Shown: in pieces, positions 25,507 through 41,919 of the stretch
Layout of the letters: each line of letters starts with the position of its first letter
Numbering within the stretch: the stretch's first letter is position 1
Source of the DNA: Okamejei kenojei
Taxonomy: Eukaryota
Assembly: GCA_035221665.1 (NCBI GenBank)
Contig: CM069148.1
Location: forward strand, 10,540,001-10,604,000
DNA length: 64,000 nucleotides
Reading direction: 5' to 3'
Notes under the pieces: model-generated
Told to the model about the DNA's origin: nothing
The model's input: the letters and a program-made list of their open reading frames with translations, nothing else
Database searches by the model: none
Made by a program: the position numbers and the translations under genes

Positions 25507-27119
25507 GTACATGATTTCCTAAAGAAAGAAATAACAGGAATCTCCTGAGCTACCATGTGCCTGGTTCCAATGAAGCAGTAAATTACTTAGTGTTGGTCAA
25601 AAATTGAATTCAGAACAAAACCATGACAATTAGGAAAAATACAAGGTTTATTTGAGAAAAGTTCAAATGTTCTTAAATTGAAATTGGAAAAATGTTCATT
25701 TGTTGAGAGATTTTACTGATTTATTGGTATAATTACTGTTATCAATACGCACTAGTTGCTACATTGTGGCACAGAAAGTTTGTTAAACATGATTCATCTA
25801 TTTTTGCTTTTTTTAAAAACGGTGGCTGATGTTAATATATAGAAACAAGCAAGAGGAGGCCATTCACCCCTTGATTTATTTTCTGCAAAACAAAACAATC
25901 ATGGCTGACCTATATTGGTGATACTTTCCTACACTGACCTTGATTTCCTCTTATACCTAAAAATCTATCAATTTCTACCTTGGAATTTCCTCATAGAATG
26001 AGTCTCCACAGCTGTCTTGGGAAGAGCATTCCAAAGTTTCACTGCAGCATACGTGAATTAATTTATTCCCATCTGCCCTGAATAGCTGACCCTTTGGTAT
26101 TTTGTGAAAAGTTGAATAAAGTTGATACAAATGAAGTGATTGAAAAATATTACAGGAACTCTTGACTTTAAACATGTTGCTGTCAGCTTTCTAGTGGGGC
26201 TGCTAAAGTGTGGTACATTGGTTAGATTATATTATGTAACGTATATAGAAACAGAAGAAAACAGATCTATTTTTACATATCCTTCTGAATGGTGGAAATA
26301 AATTTAACAACAGCTTTCAAAAGGAAATTGGATATATACTTGATAGGGAAAGAATTGGAAGGCTGTGGAGAAAAAGCCAGGGGATTAGGATTAATTGAAT
26401 AACTGTATGGAGCTGGTAGAGGCATTACAGTGTGAAGAGCCACTTTCTATAATGTACAATATTTTATCAGGGTTACTGATTTATTGTGCTTGAATAAATC
26501 AGATGACACTTTATCACCATGTTGTAAGAGCTTCTTGCGTAATGTTCTTGGTCTGGATAATATATGCACCTCTGCACAGAAATGTGTAAATCAATGGCAT
26601 TAATGATTATGTTTAATTATGCATTTAACTTTACCTCTTTTGTAAAAGTCCAAGAAATGAAGGTTGCTTGAAGGGAAGAGCTTTGTAGTTATTAGATTGT
26701 GAGAAGTGTGTGTATCACTCTGGGAATTGGAAGGAATAAACAGGTTAATAGTTAATACTTTAGATTTCCAACATTTGTAATTTTCTGATTTTAAATTAAT
26801 CATTTTGGGAATTAAAATAAAGCAATCTGCAGTTGTGGAAATCTACAAGCCATATTATGTTAAAGATACATCCATGAGAAAATTATTAGAAATTTAGGGA
26901 GATGGTTAGTTTTCGGAATAAAATGTATTTTGCTTTGCCACAATTTGTGTAACAGAGTATTAAGGTCCAGTTGTTATTAATGTGTTTGCTGACTTTCTAT
27001 ATGCAAAGGCATTGAAAATCTCTCTATATTGCCTTAAATAAATTTGCATAGAACAAAGAAAAATGAAAAAACATATATAGATCTGCCTACCAAGTTAATT
27101 TTTTGTTTAATCATAACAG

Positions 27120-28667
27120 TTAAAAACAGCAATGAATTTTCACCAGACATTGCTAAGCAAGCTGCAGAAATGCCAGGGCAGGCGACTGATAATGGGGCCA
27201 TTTTGGTGAATGAAAAAGAGTGCATCAGTCTATCGATTGTGGACGGTAATATTGAAGGGCCCAAAGTCATTCAAGAAGGTAAAACAGGAAGCATTTTCAA
27301 TGAAACGGAATGTGCAAGTACAGAACTCGAGTCGCAGTACAGTTCTATCTGTTTGGCAGAGGTCCCAGTGGAAGGAGGAAAGATGCTCTCAGACAGTGCT
27401 GATGCATTGGGTGTCTGCAGTGCAGATGTGGGTCAGCAGACAGACTCCATCGCACATAAATTCGATGGAGGCAAAAATGATACAAATGATAAGACTGAAA
27501 CCACACAGTGTGACAAAGGTGTCTTTATAAATGAACCACCCAGGACTGAAGCCAGAGCAGCTTTTAGCAGTGATGAGATTTTGACAAAGGAAGTCAGTGC
27601 AAATGAAATAAGATTAGATATAAACCAAGCTCAGCACCATACTGTTTCTGATTTTGACTCTCAATCAGTAATTAAAAATGAGCAGAGCACCATTTTACAG
27701 CAGCAGCAGCAAGGATGCCACAGCCAAGCAATCATTATTATGGAAGAAAACTGTGTTAACAATGATACAATCAGACTTTCCCCATTGCTTAATCCTTGCA
27801 GTAAGTCGGAGGGCAGTTTCACAAAGTTACCCACTGACCAGCCCGATCAAAGCATTCCATCTGAAAACTGTAAAGATAACACTAATGTTGAACCTGACAG
27901 TAAAATAGACATTTCAAGTGGAATTTCTAGCGACAAAGGGGCAGATATTACCAAGGAAGTTGGTAGTAATTCAGAGAACAATTTTGCTAATGCCAACGGT
28001 CAGCAGACAGAAACAAATGATACGGAAGTTCTTATTTCTGACAGAAAAACAGCTGGATGTGTGGATATAATTGAGCCTGTTGCTGGAGCCTTGAGAAATC
28101 TTGAATATCTACAAGGCAATGTGGCCCAAAAGAAAGACTGTGTGAACGATAACCACTCATTAAACTCCACACGCAATATTGATCATGGTGTGGTTGTAAC
28201 CCCAAACTCCCAGGTTATGGAGGAAGTTCACAACAGTGCAACTGTTTCTGCAGTCACAGTGGAAAGTGGGCAAGGAGCAATTAGTAAAATAGGTTTATGC
28301 ACTGAAATACGAGAAGTGGGAGTCTACTCCAAGACAACAGAAAATGAATTGAAATCCATCTTTATAAATACTGCATTCAATCCAATTACAACCAGGAGTG
28401 AAGATCACAGACATGAAACTACAACTTCTGAGGTAGATGCTGCAAGCAGCAAAACAACAGCAAGTCACTATTACTGGAAATCTCATAGTCTGCCATCTCT
28501 GGCCTCCAGCAAAGGAAAGGATGTATCGAACAAAGCCACAATGTCACTCCCATTCTCATTGCACAGAGACAAATTGGAGGCTCCTGCCACAATCAGAAAG
28601 GCCCCTTTAATATTCACTTTTGCAAAATCCATCAGTGAAATGAATCTGACAAAGCCAAGTGTAGCAG
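27120..28667 (+). CDS. CCDC73: CCDC73 large coding exon (low-complexity, likely disordered region)
   Basis: taacag|TT...GCAG|gtaatg, 1548 bp, phase 1-1, inside ORF 27044..28729. Human CCDC73 also has one very large exon at this position. Confidence 0.88.
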
Positions 28668-29080
28668 GTAATGTTTGCTTTCTTTTTTTATGTGATCCTA
28701 ACATAGCAAATGGATGGAGTAGCAGTTAGAATTTAAACTGTTATGTAATGTACCCTTGAGAGATGCATCAGTCAATTCTAATGTAATTGGAAGTAGTGGT
28801 CTACTTAATATGTGGCAAGGCTTAATTTCTTAATTACTGAACCATCTAACCTCAAGCAATGTTATTTTATAATGTATTATTTTCCCATAATGAGCTATAC
28901 ATCATCACTGACTCTGATTAGTAAAGGAAAGTTATCTAATGGTAAGTGGTTGTGTGGGTTCATCATAATGGCAGCAGCATTGAAGGTTCTATTATTTGCT
29001 CTGACATTAAGAAAAGGGATGCGATAAAAATGTTTATACCTAGCCACATTATATTTGATATGTGTAAGTGACTGCAAATT

Positions 29081-30575: not shown

Positions 30576-31332
30576 GTGGCTAGGATCTACTTTATTCAGT
30601 AATGCCCAGGATCAATGACACTTAAAGCACACTCCATTCGGAGGATGTCAATGTTAATGCAACATAAGTCCCAGATATAACTACAACTTTCTAAAAATTA
30701 TATATTCTGTTTGAAACAACTCATCTAAGAAGGAGGAAATGCAATTTCATAGTTCTATGTCTTATCATCACTTAAAAATAATCTGTAAAGTTAATTGTGA
30801 TAACACAAAGAAGCAGGTAGCCACAGATTTAGAGGAGTCCCCCAACAACATTAATAGCCTTTGGTATTTGTTCAGCAAAAGTAGTCTCATCCAGTCTGTG
30901 CAGAGGTCTCCCTAGTGGAACATAGAACAGTACAGCACAAAAACAATCCCTTTCAGCCCACAATGTCTGTGCCGAACATAATATTAAAACCCATCTCTAT
31001 TCTACCTGCGTATAATCCATATCCTATGCAAAAGCTTCTTAAATTCCACTATCGTATCTGCCTCAACCACCAACTCTTTTTTTTAAATTTCAAAATAGAC
31101 TTTATTCAAATGATAAATATATACAATACATGAACCTTGCGGAAAATCCATCCGACATTTTCGGAGGCTATACAAATTGATCAATACAGTTTATACATTT
31201 ATTTTCCCCAAATTTCACAAATGTGTCCCCCACCCGTGCCACCCATGTGGCCCATTGGCATGGGATACCTTCCCTTATTTTGAGGGGCGTCTCCACCATA
31301 CCGTGCTCCCCATGTCCAGCAGCGGAAGGGCC

Positions 31333-34300
31333 CTAGACTGTGGTCCTCCCCCACCGAGCCTTGGCGTTGGCTGCACCGAGCTACAGTGCGTCCCTCAGCA
31401 TGTACTCCTGCAGTCTGCAGCGGGCCAGTCGGCAACATTCCCTGACGGACATCTCGCTCTGCTGGGTGGTGAACATCGCTCGGGCAGACCAAAGAGCATC
31501 TTTCACCAAGTTGATGACCCTCCAGCAGCACTCGATGTCTGTCTCTGAATGTGTCCCTGGGAACAGTCCGTAAATCACAGAGTCCTCTATGACGGAGCTG
31601 TTCGGGATAAAGTGTACCAGGGACCCTTGCATTTTTCTCCAGACTCTTTTAACAAATCCACACTCTGCAAAGAGGTGGGAAACCTGTCTCCTCTCCATAG
31701 CAGCCGTCCCGAGGGCAGCGTGCGCTGGCAGTGAGGTTCCGACGGTGCAGGAAGGATCTGACTGGGAGGGCTCCCCTCACCGCCAGCCAAGCCAGGTCTT
31801 GGTGCTTGTTGGTGAGTTCTGGCGATGAGGCATTTTGCCAGACAAGCTGGGCAGTCTGCTCAGGGAACCACGCCACCGGGTCCATCGAGTCCTTTCCCTG
31901 CAGTGCCTGCAGCACATTCTGTGCTGACCACTGCCCAATGGACGTGTGATCAAAGGTGTTGGTCCGGAAGAACCTTTCCACAGTCGACAAATGAGGCGGC
32001 AATGTCCAGCTGACTGGCACATTGCGTGGCATCTGCGCCAGGCCCATCGCAACACCGGGGGCAGGTAGAACCTCAGCAGGTAGTGACACTTGGTGCCCAC
32101 GTGCCTTGGCTCTACATTCCGCCTGATGCAGCCACACACAAAGGTGGCCATCAGAATGAGGGCGACGTTGGGCACGCTTTTATCCCCGTTGTCTGCTGAC
32201 TTGTACATTGTGGCCCTTCGCACCTGGTCTATCGTCAATCCCCAGATTAACTGGAAGACGGCCCGGGTGATCGCTGTGGCGTAGGAGGGAGGAACAGACC
32301 ACACTTGTGCCAAGTACAGCAGCCCCGAGAGCACCTCACACCTGATGACCAAATTATTTCCCGTCTTGGAGAGGGAGCGTTGCCTCCACAGCTCCAGCTT
32401 CCTCCCCACCCTGGCTATCCGCTCCAGCCAATTCTTGTTATACGCCTCAGCCCCCCCGAACCAGATCCCCAGCACCTTAAAGAAGTCAGGCTTGATGGTG
32501 AAGGGGACAGAAGATCTGTCGGGCCAGTTGCCAAAGAGCATGGCCTCGCTCTTCCTGCGGTTCAACCTGGCTCCCGTGGCCGACTCAATCTGGTCGCAGA
32601 TACTAATCAGTCTGCGGACCGACCCTGGATCCGAGCAGAAGACAGCGACATCGTCCATGTACAGGGAGGTTTTTACTTGAATGCCCCTACTGCCAGGCAA
32701 TGTCATTCCACTTATGCTCGCATCCTTCCTGATGGATTCGGCAAAGGGTTCAATACAGCAGACAAACAAGACAGGAGAGAGAGGGCAACCCTGCCTGACT
32801 CCAGACCTTACAGGGAAACTGCCTGATTCCCACCCATTGATTTGGACTGCACTACGGATGTTGGTGAAGAGCAGTTTGATCCAATTCCTGATTCCCTCCC
32901 CAAAACCCATTTTGGAGAGCACGTCCCTCATGTATGTGTGCAAAATCCTGTTGAAGGCCTTCTCCTGGTCCAAGCTGACTAGGCAGGCATCCATCCGTCT
33001 GTCCTACACATAGGCGATGGTATCTCTCAGCAGCGCTAGGCTGTCTGAGATTTTCCTGCCAGGTACAGCACAGGTTTGGTCCGGGTGGATCACTTGTCCC
33101 AGAGCAGACTTGACCCGGTTGGTGATGGCCTTAGACAGGATCTGGTAGTCTACATTCAAGAGTGTTATGGGTCTCCAATTCTTTATGTCCTTCATCTCCC
33201 CCTTCTGCTTGTAGATTAGGGTGATGTTGCCCTTCCTCATGGAGTCTGACATCCTGCCAGCTCGAAGCATGTCATTGTACACTTCTAGCAGGTCCGGGCC
33301 CATCCAGTCCCACAGAGCCGAATATAACTCAGCCGGTAAGCCATTGCTTCCGGGAGTTTTACTCGAGTCAAAGGAACGGATGGAGCCAGTCAGCTCCTCT
33401 AGGATCAGTGGTTGGTCCAGAGTCTCCCGCTTGTTGTCCTCCAAGACCTCCGTGATCGAGGACAGGAAGTTCTGGGAGGAGGTACTGTCTGTGGCCTTTT
33501 GGTCATACAAATCTGTGTAAAAGGATTTGCAGATCCTCAGCATGTCTGTCTGTGAGGATGCTACCGAGCTGTCCTCCTCCCTAAGGCTGTTCATCACAGA
33601 GCTCCCCCTGTGAACCTTATGGAAGAAGAAACGTGAGCACGTCTCATCCTGCTCCACATGGCGGACCCTGGATCAGAAAATGATCTTGGAGGATTCCGAG
33701 GTAAAGAGCCGAGCTTGCCGGTCCTTCACCTCTCTAAGTTCCTCCCTCACATCCACCCCTCTCGACTGCAGAAGGAGCAGTTGTTGCAAATCTGTCTGGA
33801 GTTGGCACAATTCCCTCTGACTCTGTCTTGCTCTCTGAACCCCTTTAATTATGAAGAACCTCTTAATGTTCTTGGTTGCTTCCCACCAGAGTGTCAGGGA
33901 GTCAAAGAGGGGCCTCACCGTTCACCAACATGCGTAGTCCCTCTTTAGCTCCTCAACGTTCTCTGGGGTCAACAGCTTCATGTTTAACTTCCACGTCCCT
34001 CTGCCTGCCTTCCGGTCCTCCTGTAGGTGACAGGAAGCCTGAAGGAGGCAGTGGTCGGAGAAGAACACCGGCGTGACGTCAGTGTGTCTCACCGTGACGG
34101 CCTTCGTCGTGAAGACGAAGTCTATCCGAGATCGGGCTAAACCGTCCGATCTCGACCAGGTGAACCGCGGCTGGGACCCGCCTGCAGGGTCGCTGAAGGC
34201 GTCGCGCAGCTTTGCGTCTTTTACCATCTCCATCAGGAACTTGGACGTGCTGTCCAGTCTGTTGTCGGCACTGCCGGATCGTCCAGCCGCATCAATGATG

Positions 34301-34734
34301 CAGTTGAAGTCACCGGCCAGAATGAGCTGCCGGGACGTGGCCAGCAGCACTGGAAGCTGCTGGAGAACGGCCAGCCGCTCGCTCTGCGTGGGTGAGGCAT
34401 ACACATTTATCAGCCGGAGCGGAGAGCCACGGTACATAACATCCACCACGAGGAGACGCCCTCCAACCACTTCCCTGACCTCAGTGATGGCGAAGTTCCC
34501 TCCCCGCAGCAAGATCCCCAGGCCGGAAGCATGACAGTCATTGCCCCCCGACCACACCGACAGTCCGTGGGGCCACCATCGCGACCACCTCCGGTAGCAG
34601 CGGAGGTGTGGCAACCAGCACTCCTGAAGAAAGGTTACATCTGCCTTGACCTTGGCCAGGTACTGTAAGGCATTTACACATCGCGCAGTGCTCTTTATAC
34701 TGCGCACGTTTAAAGATGCCAGTTTGAGCTCCAT
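31333..34734 (-). pseudogene. Tx1 ORF2: APE endonuclease + reverse transcriptase + C-terminal zinc-finger region, with frameshifts and stops
   Basis: APE motifs SLNVRS, FLQE, INVYAS, AGDFN, SRIDF, FSDH. RT motifs WRPITLLNVDY, LDQEKAF, GVRQGCPLSP, LYMDD. C-terminal CPR..C...HLFAEC. Confidence 0.95.
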
Positions 34735-34745
34735 TGTCTTTAGAG

Positions 34746-36304
34746 TCACTGAGCATTTCCGTGTCCCCTCATTCCCACCGCTTCGGTGAATTGCCTCAGC
34801 TTTCCTGGGCTCAGGAATCCAGCGCCGGCATCCTCGATGAGGTAGGTTTCAGGTGGCGTAACCAAAGGTGTCGTTGGGGGGGGCCTTCTTGTTCCACCCC
34901 CTTTTGGCCGCGCCGCTTCCTCCGTCTCCTGTAGCTGGGTCACGGTGGCTGGTTCACTGCTCCCAGAAACCCGGAGCTGGGGCCCAATGGCCTCGGCGCT
35001 GCTCCTGGTCGCCCGGAGCTGGGGCCCATTGGCCGTTGCAATGCTCCCGGTCGCCCGGAGCTGGGGCCCATTGGCCGCTGTGATGATCCCAGTCTCCAGG
35101 GGCTGGAGCCCATTGGCCGCTGTGATGATCCCAGTCTCCAGGGGCTGGAGCCGCTCGACTGCTGCACTGTTCCCGATGTCCTGGGGCTGGAGCCCCTCAG
35201 CCGCTTCTCTGCTCTCGGTCTCCTGGGGCTGGGAGATGATCGTCGTGGCCTCTCTCTTTTCCTACCCCGTTTTCTTCCTCTGCCTCCATCGTTGGGACTT
35301 CCCGGTCACCTCATCCTCCGACGAGGAGAGGTTGCTGCCTTCTGCAAGAGAAAGAGACCTTTTTTGGGGGTTTACTTTTGGACTTACCAGTCCTTTCCGG
35401 CCTCGGCTCTTTGGGCTGACCCCTCTGGTGCTTCTTGTACTTCACCGTTGTCCATTTCTCCTGCTGTTCCCCCTCTTCCATTGACTCTCCCTCCTGGGCA
35501 GGATGCTGGGGTCTCCTTCTGGCACTTGGGGCCTCAAGGTGGTTGGGGTGTCCTCATCCGTGTTCCCTCTTTCTGCTGGGGTCTTGGCAGTGGTGGGGGG
35601 TGTTGGGGGTGCTGGCAGCAGCCCCTCTTGTCGCCTGTGCGTAGGTGCAGGCCCTGTAAAGGTGGCCTGCCTCTCCGCACAGGTTGCAGTTCTTGCTGGC
35701 CTGACAGTCCTTTGTCTCATGGCCCTCCGTCTTGCAGTTTTTGCAGACAACTGCAGTGCATTGGGCCATCACGTGCCCAGGCTTGTTGCATTTCATGCAC
35801 AGCCTGGGTTGCCCCACGTAGCTCAGGTATCCTCGGTTTCCCCCGATCGCGAAAACCGAGGGAGGGTGGATGATTTCTCCATCCTTGTCCACCCTCAGCT
35901 TTACCTTGACTTGCCGCTTGCTCGTCCAAATCCCATGCAGGTCCTTCACGTCCACACAGTTCCCTGTTCCCTCGACGTAGCGAGCAAGGAAGGTGAGGTC
36001 ATCCACTACGGGCACATGTGGGTTCAGCAGCGACAGCGGAGCTTCATTCCCCCTCTCCCGGACGTCTTCCATCACCTTCTGCCATCGATGTTACCGTCGG
36101 ATACTTGAAGGTAACATCAAACTATCCGTTACCCGGGAACTCCTGGAGGCAGTAGATGTCCTTGACCACAAATTTTCAGGCCTCTAGCAAGACCTTCTTC
36201 ACGAACAGGTCTCGTGAGAAGGGGGTCCCCTTGCTGAGGTCCTTGACGCTTATTCTCAGGGTATTCCGAATACCCTATACTCCTGCTCCTGTTGCTGCTG
36301 ACAT
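34746..36304 (-). pseudogene. Tx1 ORF1: ZCCHC3-like RRM + three CCHC zinc knuckles, disrupted
   Basis: gccacaATG at 36304. IRNTLRI...DIYCLQEFPG..FDVTF, then CMKCNKPGHVMAQC, CKNCKTEGHETKDC, CNLCGEAGHLYRAC. Stop at 34746-48, 11 nt before the ORF2 ATG. Contains in-frame stops and frameshifts. Confidence 0.9.
34970..35232. repeat. 42-bp (14-codon) degenerate tandem repeat inside Tx1 ORF1
   Basis: ~6 units, e.g. CCCGGAGCTGGGGCCCATTGGCCGTTGCAATGCTCCCGGTCG. Visible as a 14-aa periodicity in the ORF track. Confidence 0.88.
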
Positions 36305-36468
36305 TGTGGCTGAATAAGGTGTTAGGTTGGTTACCAGCATGGATCCACCTCTAAGGCTGCAGCCGACCGACTCCTTGTCAACGATTTTGCTCCGCAATCC
36401 ACGCCCTTGTCCCCAAGGGACCGCCAGACTTGTTATAATAAGAACAGATAGCCTCTTTTACTCAAATA

Positions 36469-36518
36469 CTCATCCTGGTGAGAACCGCCTTGGTGATCAA
36501 AGTCTGCCAGGTAAGTAT
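36469..36518 (-). other. U1 snRNA-derived 5' head of the Tx1 element
   Basis: The - strand reads ATACTTACCTGGCAG-actt-TGATCACCAAGGCGGTTCTCACCAGGATGAG. Vertebrate U1 reads ATACTTACCTGGCAG-GGGAGATACCA-TGATCACGAAGGTGGTTTTCCCAGGGCGAG. The first 15 nt are identical and start at U1 +1. Confidence 0.88.
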
Positions 36519-37955
36519 ATGACCACCTCAACCACCAACACTGGCAGGGTGATCTAGGCATACAGCAGGCTTTGTGTAAAATAAAACCTGCTCCACACAT
36601 CTCCTTTAATCTTTGCCCCTGTCACCTTAAAGCTATATGCAATAATAATTTGATTTTTCCACCCTGAGGTTCTTACCTGATCACCTGGCCTAGCCTATTC
36701 TATCACCTGGAGTGTCACCTGGTCTGTTCTGCCCTCCTCACTAAAACGCAAAATTATGGCATTGTCTAAAGAGAGGCCCCACCCCGATATGTTGCCTATC
36801 AATTCCCTCCACGGATGCTGCCTGGTCCATTGAGTTACTCCAGCACCTTGTGTTTTGCTGAAGATTCCAACATCTGCAGTACCTTGTATCCACTCTCCAG
36901 CCTATTCATTGTTCCTTTTCTCTTTCAACTTTTTTTACAGTGGTTAGTCAGCTTCAGTGTTGATTCATAACTTATACCAGATCTTACCACACTCTTTTTG
37001 AAGTTTTTCCTTCTAACTTCCGCTTGAATTACATATGAATTGTCTATCTATTTCTTCACTCTGCTTTCAGAAGGCAGGAACGGGGTACTGAATGTGGATG
37101 ATCAGCCATCATCACAGTGAATGGCGGTGCTGACTTGAAGGGCCGAATGGCCTACTCTTGCACCTATTGTCTATTGAATCTTGACTGTCATGAGCAATAC
37201 TAAGGAAAATTGTGTGTGTGTGGGTGTGTTAGTGGGTACACCCTCATACCAGTGAGCAAAACTCAGTTAAAATTGGTATAACTTATCGTGTTGCCTGCAT
37301 CTTCGGAATCGAAGCTACCTTGCTCCCACCTATCCACTATTCTCTTCTATATCTTTTATGTTGAAGCCATCAGCCAACTTTAGGAACATGTATGTCTCCT
37401 CTACTGGCTCCCTCCCAAAGTCTGAAATGTATTGGTCATACGGGGCTTTCTATCACTAAACTTATCAAAAGTGATTTACTATCTCACATATTCAACTTAC
37501 CAGACCCAATATGACTCAATCCAGACACAGACATGAACTTTACAACGTGTATTTCTTGTTATTCCTGATAGGAAATCAAGTCAACAGAAGAAATAACAGA
37601 ATTTGCACATTTGAGGCCTAATAAAGTGGAGTTCCTGGCAAATTAATATTTGTTCTTCACTAGTAATTAACCACTAGTTAAACAGTATGTTATTTGTCAA
37701 GGGGAGATACATTTTAAATAAATATTTCAAATTATTTTTGCGTACTCTGTCAGTATAAGATCAAAGCTTGCATTAGAATAGGAAATTGTATCGTGAATGG
37801 ATGAACAGTGAAGCGTCTCTGATTAAAGTGGAATAGTCATAATTCTCAAGGTCAGATAGAAACTAGCAGTTCAGTGACTTCAAAATTAGCATCTGGGGAA
37901 TTTCAAAGTTTAGAGCATTGAGTGTAGTTGTAACCATTTCCTTTCTGTCACTCAG

Positions 37956-40307: not shown

Positions 40308-41919
40308 CAGTGGCTTGCAAAAGTATTCATACCCGTTGAACTTTTCCACATTTTGTCACGTTACAACCACAAACGTAAATGTATTTTATTGGGATTTTAT
40401 GTGATAGACCAACACAAAGTGGTGCATTATTGTGAAGTGGAAGGAAAATGATACATGGTTTTCAAATTCTTTTACAAATAAAAAACTGAAAAGTGTGGCA
40501 TGCAAAAGTATTCAGCCCCCTTTACTCTGATACCCCGAAATAAAATCCAGTGCAACCAATTGCCTTCAGAAGTCACCTAATTAGTAAATAGAGTCCACTT
40601 GTGTGTAATCTAATCGCAGTATAAATACAGCTGTACTGTGAAGGCCTCAGAGGTTTGTTAGAGAACATTAGTGAACATCAGCATCATAAAGCCGAAGGAA
40701 CACACCAGACAGGTTAGGGATAAAGTTGTGGAGAAGTTTAAAGCAGGGTTAGGTTATAAAAAAATATCCCAAGCTTTGAACATCTCACGGAGCACTGTTC
40801 AATCCATCATCCGAAAATGGATAGAGTATGGTACAACTGCAAACCTACCAAGACATGGCCATCCACCTAAACTGACAGGCCGGGCAAGGAGCGCATTGAT
40901 CAGAGAAGCAGCCAGAGGCCCGTGGTAACTGGAGGAGCTGCAGAGATCCACAGCTCAGGTGGAAGAATCTGTCCATAGGACAACTATTAGTCGTGCACTC
41001 CACAAATCGGGCCTTTATGGAAGAGTGGCAAGAAGAAAGCCATTGTTGAAACAAAGCCATAAGAAGTCCCGTTTGCAGTTTGCCACAAGCCATGTGGGGG
41101 ACCCAGCAAACATGTGGAGGAAGGTGCTCTGGTCTGATGAGACCAAAATTGAAGTTTTTGGCCTAAATGCAAAATGCTATGTGTGGCGGAAAACTAACAC
41201 TGCACATCACCCTGAACACACCATCCCCACTGTGAAACATGGTGGTGGCAGCATCATGCTGCGGGGATGCTTTTCTTCAGCAGGGACAGGGAAGCTGGTC
41301 AGAGTTGATGGGAAGATGGATGGAGCCAAATACAGGGCAATCTTGGAAGAAAACCTGTTAGAGTCTGCAAAAGACTTGAGACTGGGGCGGAGGTTCACCT
41401 TCCAGCAGGACAACGATCTAAACATACAGCCAGAGCTACAATGGAATGGTTTAGATCAAAGCATATTCATGTGTTGGAATGGCCCAGTCAAAGTCCAGAC
41501 CTAAATCCAATTGAGAATCTCTGGCAAGACTTGAAAATTGCTGTTCACAGACGCTCTCCATCCAATCTGACTGAGCTTGAGCTATTTTTCAAAGAAGAAT
41601 GGGCAAAAATTTCAGTCTCTAGATGTGCAAAGCTGGTAGAGACATACCCCAAAAGACTTGCAGCTGTAATTGCAGCGAAAGGTGGTTCTACAAAGTATTA
41701 ACTCAGGGGGGCTGAATACTCTTGCACGCCACACTTTTCAGTTTTTTATTTGTAATAAAATTTGGAAACCATGTATCATTTTCCTTCCACTTCACAATTA
41801 TGCACCACTTTGTGTTGGTCTATCACATACAATCCCAATAAAATACATTTACATTTGTGGTTGTAACGTGACAAAATGTGGAAAAGTTCAAGGGGTATGA
41901 ATACTTTTGCAAGCCACTG
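40308..41919 (+). mobile_element. Tc1-family (DD34E) DNA transposon, full-length, IR/DR-type TIRs
   Basis: TA TSD (40306-07, 41920-21). ~213-bp TIRs CAGTGGCTTGCAAAAGTATTCA... (40308-40520, 41707-41919), each carrying inner and outer TGCAAAAGTATTCA-like direct repeats. Confidence 0.97.
40686..41701 (+). pseudogene. Tc1 transposase, frameshifted (start codon ATA, two frameshifts)
   Basis: Paired-like HTH GYKKISQALNISRSTVQSII, ARRKPLL, WSDETK, FQQDND and [11 protein letters not shown] are split across ORFs 40671, 40959 and 41441. Confidence 0.95.

Follow-up and report, generated by a model that had tools for sequence, protein, structure and literature searches.

Target choice in the Tx1 clade of non-LTR retrotransposons is usually attributed to the sequence preference of the endonuclease. 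Keno, a LINE of this clade with an AP endonuclease, is described as specific for U2 genes (PMC4494074, PMC4640811, PMC6136364), and the 3' flank of both Keno and Utopia is given as beginning at U2 nt 39 (PMC4640811, PMC6136364). In crocodilians, Tx1-Mar and SINEU carry heads derived from U1 and U2 that were built up by serial addition of U1 and U2 segments; the study ascribes the heads to template switching, leaves open how headed elements are transcribed and, in the legend of its Fig. 3, mentions a Tx1 family that targets U5 (Kojima 2015, PMC4494074). Other elements meet small RNA genes in different ways. Dada-U1 is described as a DDE DNA transposon that enters U1 genes by sequence recognition and leaves duplications of 6–7 bp (PMC8869645, PMC4640811), TRE5-A of Dictyostelium is reported to target TFIIIC/TFIIIB and to spare tRNA genes by inserting ~50 bp in front of them (PMC3159450), and chimeras of U6 and L1 are presented as one-off, non-propagating events (bioRxiv 10.1101/2025.02.02.635956). 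In the literature covered, which lies outside Repbase and most subscription journals, no paper was found on a non-LTR element that targets U1, U3 or U4 or that is anchored to the PSE.

The window analysed here, a stretch of 64,000 nt from Okamejei kenojei, holds a complete but decayed 5.4-kb LINE with two ORFs on the minus strand (36518–31077), and all features of the element are given on that strand. It is preceded by the 5' copy of a 16-nt target-site duplication (36526..36541, one mismatch to the 3' copy) and by a 7-nt filler, read from the sequence, between duplication and head (36519..36525). The head itself (36469..36518) corresponds to U1 nt 1–56, with a net loss of 6 nt here, and the heads of sister copies match the same U1 segment at up to 100%. 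An 18-nt linker follows (36451..36468), the last 11–13 nt of which are common to the U1-headed and U2-headed subfamilies, and then a remnant of U2 nt 37–52 (36435..36450). The U1 and U2 references were genes of the same genome (U1 L069, U2 L034); an Rfam scan of the window did not detect U1 or U2, the pieces being too short. Both ORFs are broken by stops and frameshifts. ORF1 (34746..36304, 3' limit approximate) has a predicted ZCCHC3-like RNA-binding domain (PF23058, E 1.8e-20) and CCHC knuckles (PF00098), and ORF2 (31333..34734) a predicted AP-type endonuclease (PF03372) and reverse transcriptase (PF00078). The 3' UTR with its poly(A) tail occupies 31077..31332, and the 3' copy of the duplication lies at 31061..31076, the window copy sitting outside snRNA genes. 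Two ORFs, an AP endonuclease joined to a reverse transcriptase, CCHC knuckles, a poly(A) tail and a target duplication make up the Tx1-clade architecture, and judged by its sequence the family is Tx1-type. Protein matches of the reverse transcriptase include a zebrafish 'transposon TX1 149 kDa' protein (42%) and the pol-like BAC82621.1 (38%), none of the matches bearing the name Keno, and for the reverse transcriptase of a sister copy a 96% identical protein exists that clusters with a little-skate protein. A first look at the 3' end of the family gave 2,064 candidates in the genome, a rough figure, and a metagenome scan for relatives gave one weak, uninformative locus. Elsewhere in the window, on the plus strand, there are a 563-codon open frame without a Pfam match (27038–28729), likely a long host exon, and a remnant of a Tc1/mariner transposase (40929–41504, PF01498).

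The earlier note had pointed to an exact match to U2 nt 37–49 situated 18 nt after the U1 head, and this is borne out by the U2 gene of the same genome, to which positions 36450–36438 of the minus strand are an exact sense match (head 36518–36469, linker 36468–36451). The 13-mer is part of a remnant of U2 nt 37–52 that is fixed in the family. When the 5' end of the family was compared with U2, as the note had proposed, 28 of the 30 best loci for this end, the window locus among them, carried the exact 13-mer. The main 5' form is represented by 90 copies, of which 12 agree with U2 37–52 at every base and 72 have a single mismatch at nt 50; in the window copy two of the final three bases of the remnant have changed. 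A relative that is 71% identical and older keeps U2 42–52, followed in the one copy available by two pieces of U1 40/41–52, which indicates that the remnant is old and that older U1 scars possibly lie underneath it. Very probably the remnant is the scar of an old junction with a U2 insertion site.

U2 is a present-day target of the family and not only an ancestral one. The best 30 loci for the 3' half of U2 with its native flank comprise 23 directly downstream of the family and 7 that are intact. At the 23 junctions the first U2 base is nt 36 in 13, nt 39 in six, nt 37 in two, nt 33 in one and unclear in one, with the proviso that an A bordering the poly(A) could belong to U2 or to the tail. 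A pattern of poly(A) followed by U2 39–58 had the family in 8 of 10 matches. Of 16 U2 genes with native upstream sequence seven are interrupted, six of them by 5'-complete copies, and in these six the order is U2 promoter, U2 1–47/49, short linker, exact U2 37–52 and element body; they show two junction types only and may trace to few events. One locus (L087) has both U2 halves, with U2 39–52 duplicated. Two further arrangements were seen around U2. In a complete copy at 16.967 Mb of G000:C37 (L094) the U2 promoter meets the linker via a shared word of 7–9 nt, which could reflect a deletion made afterwards or show where the linker came from, and a family-free fragment of U2 4–87 lies within one larger repeat at five places (L075–L078, L080).

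Interrupted snRNA genes are not confined to U2. Among the 40 best matches to the 3' half of U1, 23 are interrupted, all at nt 32–41 (12 in one batch and 11 of 19 in the other), and poly(A) followed by U1 was found at 18 sites, 16 of which have the family upstream; several of the loci counted are array duplicates and not separate events (e.g., L280, L283–L285). Copies of the kind for which the note had suggested a search, with U2 or U1 sequence as their 3' flank, do exist. U3 is interrupted in 2 of 11 Rfam matches, both at nt 37 and one with both halves and promoter-like sequence upstream, and U4 at two sites among 18 matches (nt 34 and 36/37), in a U4 cluster. The duplications at snRNA-gene insertions measure 8–19 nt. 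The case for U5 is doubtful: at two related loci a piece of ORF2 is joined at nt 37–40 without poly(A), no clean poly(A) junction was seen, and the pattern of poly(A) followed by U5 gave no match. None of the U11 (four) or U12 (one) matches is interrupted, few of these being true genes. U6 was considered as a target and rejected; the two loci that matched the poly(A) pattern are U6 copies lacking the family, and no interruption was seen in 30 U6 loci, a weak result as these include about three promoter-bearing U6 genes. Most copies are dispersed: of the 30 3' ends that come nearest to the window copy none lies in an snRNA gene, and of 74 complete copies 3 do. Specificity for a single site in U2 does not describe these positions, with U2 cut at nt 33–39 and U1, U3 and U4 used as well. 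The family resembles Keno in combining an AP endonuclease (PF03372) with a reverse transcriptase, in its presence in U2 genes and in having 6 of 23 U2 junctions at nt 39, and to this extent the earlier suggestion of U2 targeting at a Keno-like site stands. The main U2 cut at nt 36, the additional targets U1, U3 and U4, the mostly dispersed copies and the stacked heads set the family apart from Keno as published.

Several arrangements at these genes deserve description in their own right. At four loci (L283–L285, L326) an intact U1 or U4 gene lies upstream, then the element, then a 3' half of U1 or U4, which echoes an arrangement reported for Utopia; Utopia differs in having a restriction-like endonuclease, whereas the family has its AP endonuclease at the start of ORF2. 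When a model of long duplications was checked at these loci the flanks matched at 94–98% (U1) and at 83% over 48 nt (U4), and the structure of tandem arrays accounts for these matches equally well. Two U1 genes with native upstream sequence on G000:C21 (L294, L431) contain short foreign inserts in the insertion zone, with the structures U1 1–40, 24 nt, U1 24–164 and U1 1–9, ~60 nt, U1 32–164, respectively. A variant U1 sequence occurs both as head and as interrupted target (L133, L149, L157, L176, L208; L423, L433, L437). In a U5 cluster at 42.30 Mb of G000:C8 (L321, L323) there are repeated U5 duplications from nt 37–41 on, some with a 100-nt piece of ORF2 and some without, and fragments of U4 4–80 recur on several small contigs (L328–L332, L334, L336, L341).

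The cut-site sequences of eight snRNA insertions have no motif in common, and 33 off-target sites show a weak preference for A/G only. A GTTCT core common to the U1 and U2 sites was considered and dropped, being absent from U3 and U4. Guidance of insertion by the head was likewise discarded: U2-headed copies lie in U1 (L184, L213, L279, L286) and in U3 (L241), and U4 is a target though no U4 head occurs among the loci examined. What the target genes have in common is a distance. A PSE-like 19-mer is located between −59 and −65 in 19 upstream regions of the Pol II snRNA type, and with cuts at +32 to +41 this places the insertions in snRNA genes ~93–102 nt behind the PSE. Off-target insertions were then scored for the same spacing in 32 independent site classes, left from 43 duplication-defined sites once tandem sites (4), sites of the Penelope class (4) and duplicates (3) had been taken out. 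In 8 of the 32 the highest-scoring motif position among 196 offsets was 93–102 nt upstream (1.6 expected, P 1.6e-4); other windows gave 0–3, and 8 was reached by 0 of 300 permuted matrices. The interval of 93–102 nt was chosen after the result on a Penelope repeat that prompted the test had been seen; a wider interval of 88–106 nt, set earlier, gave 9 of 32 (P 0.003). None of the five short truncated copies among the 32 classes shows the signal. In a replicate without exact cuts (47 classes from 115 copies) 10 fell in the predicted interval of 101–121 nt (4.7 expected, P 0.016; 4 of 300 permutations), and the adjoining interval of 80–100 nt also held 10. The repeat flanking the window copy has a PSE-like 19-mer at 36623..36641 of the minus strand, 100 nt upstream of the insertion point; it is the best of 196 offsets, is weak (3.2 bits only) and is no evidence when taken alone.

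Many independent copies of the family lie in one zone of ~60 bp of a repeat that is Penelope-like, judging from a GIY-YIG-like translation, with a motif resembling the PSE of U12 94–100 nt upstream (L041, L043, L044, L053, L056, L057, L064, L067, L169, L205, L206, L219, L225, L227). These sites had prompted the PSE test and were left out of it.

Stacked snRNA captures within one LINE, which the earlier note had envisaged, occur in the family as U1 on U2, U2 on U1, U3 on U2 and U3 on U1 on U2. Exact patterns distinguish two 5' forms, the main form with 90 copies and the U1 form of the window with 45. The heads of the main form are U2 alone in 65, U1 on U2 in 21, U3 on U2 in two (in L386, U3 1–47 on U2 1–49), U3 with U1 and U2 in one and U1 only in one; a U2 head is present in 89 of the 90, and 73 end at nt 50 or 54. 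In 3 of 30 copies of the U1 form, U2 up to nt 46/47 has been placed on top. In 42 of 74 complete copies the heads lie inside target duplications of 8–19 nt. The end of the head exceeds the cut site by about one duplication length, which fits a head that is the 5' fragment of the host gene read through into the element. A dispersed copy (L279) starts at U2 +1, has the junction of two U2-resident copies (L311, L315) and differs from residents by 0.2–0.5%. In another copy, at 155.369 Mb of G000:C2 (L290), the 3' end and poly(A) are followed by U2 39–153 and a further poly(A), a single duplication enclosing the whole; as the copy carries U2 39–153 with a new poly(A), a U2-resident copy was a source, by 3' transduction. 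An origin of the heads by read-through from the host promoter is quite likely, with a better case for U2 than for either U1 or U3. No 5'-complete copy was found behind the promoter in 11 U1 genes with the one upstream form searched. Two loose ends among the contigs of four sequencing runs match junction types of the family.

Tx1-Mar and SINEU are similar in having heads derived from U1 or U2, serial addition and a preferred spot in another repeat. They differ in that Mariner-N4 is their target, whereas here the donor genes are themselves among the targets, with promoter-adjacent copies and U3 heads; the recurrent flanks of the family are snRNA genes and other repeats. SINEU is moreover short and non-coding, whereas the family is a 5.4-kb element with two ORFs.

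The sequence of events was approached with ~800 nt of 5' sequence, for which 103 of 125 copies had enough cover. The U2 residents have a median pairwise distance of 0.9%; the value is 4.4% among U2-headed copies and 6.9% among U1-headed ones. Rooted on the 71%-identical relative, the tree has the U1-headed copies as a basal grade, with the reservation that decay may pull copies towards the outgroup. In a 31-row subset, from which three copies nested among U2 heads (L002, L009, L024) and three near-duplicates were removed after a first tree, an AU test rejected the U1-headed copies as a single clade (p 0.001). The U2 clade itself is unsupported (28/54). The order was likely the remnant, then the U1 head, then a U2 head again. 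An ancestral U2 stage merely overwritten by U1, as had been supposed, is not supported in that form: the youngest copies are in U2, and the U1-headed copies are an older grade after which U2 heads probably returned.

Other explanations exist for the remnant, the heads and the insertion site. That the 13-mer matches U2 by chance is exceedingly improbable. The window offers 13 nt only, and shuffles of the 164-nt UTR that preserve dinucleotides reach this length in 11 of 20,000 cases against U2, and in 67 of as many when six snRNAs and both strands are considered; set against this are 12 copies that match over 16 of 16 nt, and the position of the 13-mer across the family's own cut and duplication zone in U2, a gene in which the family is present. 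It might also be held that the remnant is kept by selection, either as a 7-bp hairpin of U2 40–46 with the next bases or as a patch of homology that helps the end of the cDNA to anneal at the U2 cut. Persistence of U2 42–52 in the 71%-identical relative, the hairpin in the predicted fold of one copy (L312) and two copies in which U2 is joined directly onto the remnant (L079, L161) are in its favour. However, each of the two direct-join patterns has one match, against the 90 and 45 copies with linker, part of the hairpin arm is lost in the window copy, and the same hairpin is expected from fold-back where the cut lies after nt 52, which makes selection an improbable reason for the remnant. As for the heads, both they and the remnant could have been added in the course of reverse transcription, by template switching or by RNA ligation onto free snRNAs, with read-through in a minor role. 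This is the origin proposed for SINEU (Kojima 2015, PMC4494074), and it would accommodate the lack of a master behind the U1 promoters searched (0 of 11), stacked U1 pieces that end at nt 20–38, before the main U1 cut (10 of 22), the recurrence of the exact U2 base at nt 50 on scattered branches, and near full-length U6 fused to 5'-truncated copies at 3 of 30 U6 loci (L363, L364, L368). The U6 cases are akin to the published U6/L1 chimeras, in which snRNA likewise heads a LINE and a single duplication encloses both, whereas the heads of the family mark multi-copy subfamilies on 5'-complete elements. U6 is fused only near full length and only to truncated copies, while the donors of the heads are also the target genes, most heads end one duplication length past the cut, and private junctions are common to promoter-adjacent U2 copies and dispersed copies. 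Template switching as the main source of heads is accordingly considered unlikely; read-through and template switching likely both operate.

The remaining alternative concerns the insertion site, and holds that an endonuclease with loose specificity for sequence or structure acts where DNA is open and heavily transcribed, such as at a paused polymerase, without any tethering to a complex on the PSE. Keno is described as sequence-specific (PMC6136364), ordinary repeats contain hot zones, U1 +40 resembles U4 +34, and 20 of 33 sites have G as their first base (an A there, next to the poly(A), escapes scoring). The likeness of U1 and U4 does not extend to the sites in U2, U3 and U5, however, the cut in U2 varies from nt 33 to 39, and the excess at the PSE distance is also seen at off-target sites, which are unlikely to be active snRNA genes; this alternative is judged rather doubtful. 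Anchoring of insertion by the PSE, a putative process to which the off-target distance test lends moderate support, seems on balance the better description. A fixed distance to a promoter motif across unrelated targets, the hallmark of TRE5-A, was found in U1–U4 (+32 to +41, PSE at about −61) and in 8 of 32 off-target classes. If this reading holds, the family would be, like TRE5-A as described, a non-LTR element at a fixed distance from a transcription complex whose off-target insertions mark cryptic binding motifs; it differs from TRE5-A in landing inside genes of the Pol II snRNA type, and in that the tethering factor is putative here. Dada-U1, from what is published, shares the insertion into U1 genes and differs in having no RNA step and no capture of heads.

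Taken together, it is reasonably likely that the remnant is a junction scar, that insertion at +32 to +41 of U1–U4 is promoter-guided and that the heads arose by read-through from host promoters. The cycle would begin with insertions at +32 to +41, which are seen in four unrelated genes of the snRNA type and are flanked by duplications of 8–19 nt. Their position, ~93–102 nt behind the PSE, would be set by a predicted tethering to the PSE-bound complex (SNAPc or an early Pol II complex), the cut itself having a weak A/G preference only. Complete copies right behind U2 promoters, in the order U2 1–47/49, linker, remnant and body, are present at the DNA level, and RNA reading through from the snRNA +1 would provide progeny with the first 45–56 nt of the host gene, i.e., up to the cut site plus the duplication, so that they would need no promoter of their own. 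Repeated hops would stack heads, and older heads would be trimmed or swapped, leaving scars like the 13-mer; some heads likely arise by template switching instead.

It is tempting to speculate, as a tentative generalization, that this LINE reads the snRNA promoter complex (PSE/SNAPc) as a landing mark, inserts at a fixed distance in any gene of the Pol II snRNA type and, being promoterless, hops among U1, U2 and U3. The 'U2 sequence specificity' of Keno and the stacked heads of SINEU and Tx1-Mar could then be outcomes of the same cycle. As the sampled 3' halves of U1 and U2 that match best are interrupted in over half of the cases, the element shapes these gene clusters of its host. By inserting in four unrelated snRNA-type genes equally far from the promoter, the family would provide, in a vertebrate, a Pol II counterpart of the tethering known from tRNA genes, and read-through offers a testable answer to the question left by Kojima (2015) of how such elements are transcribed without an internal promoter and acquire their heads in series.
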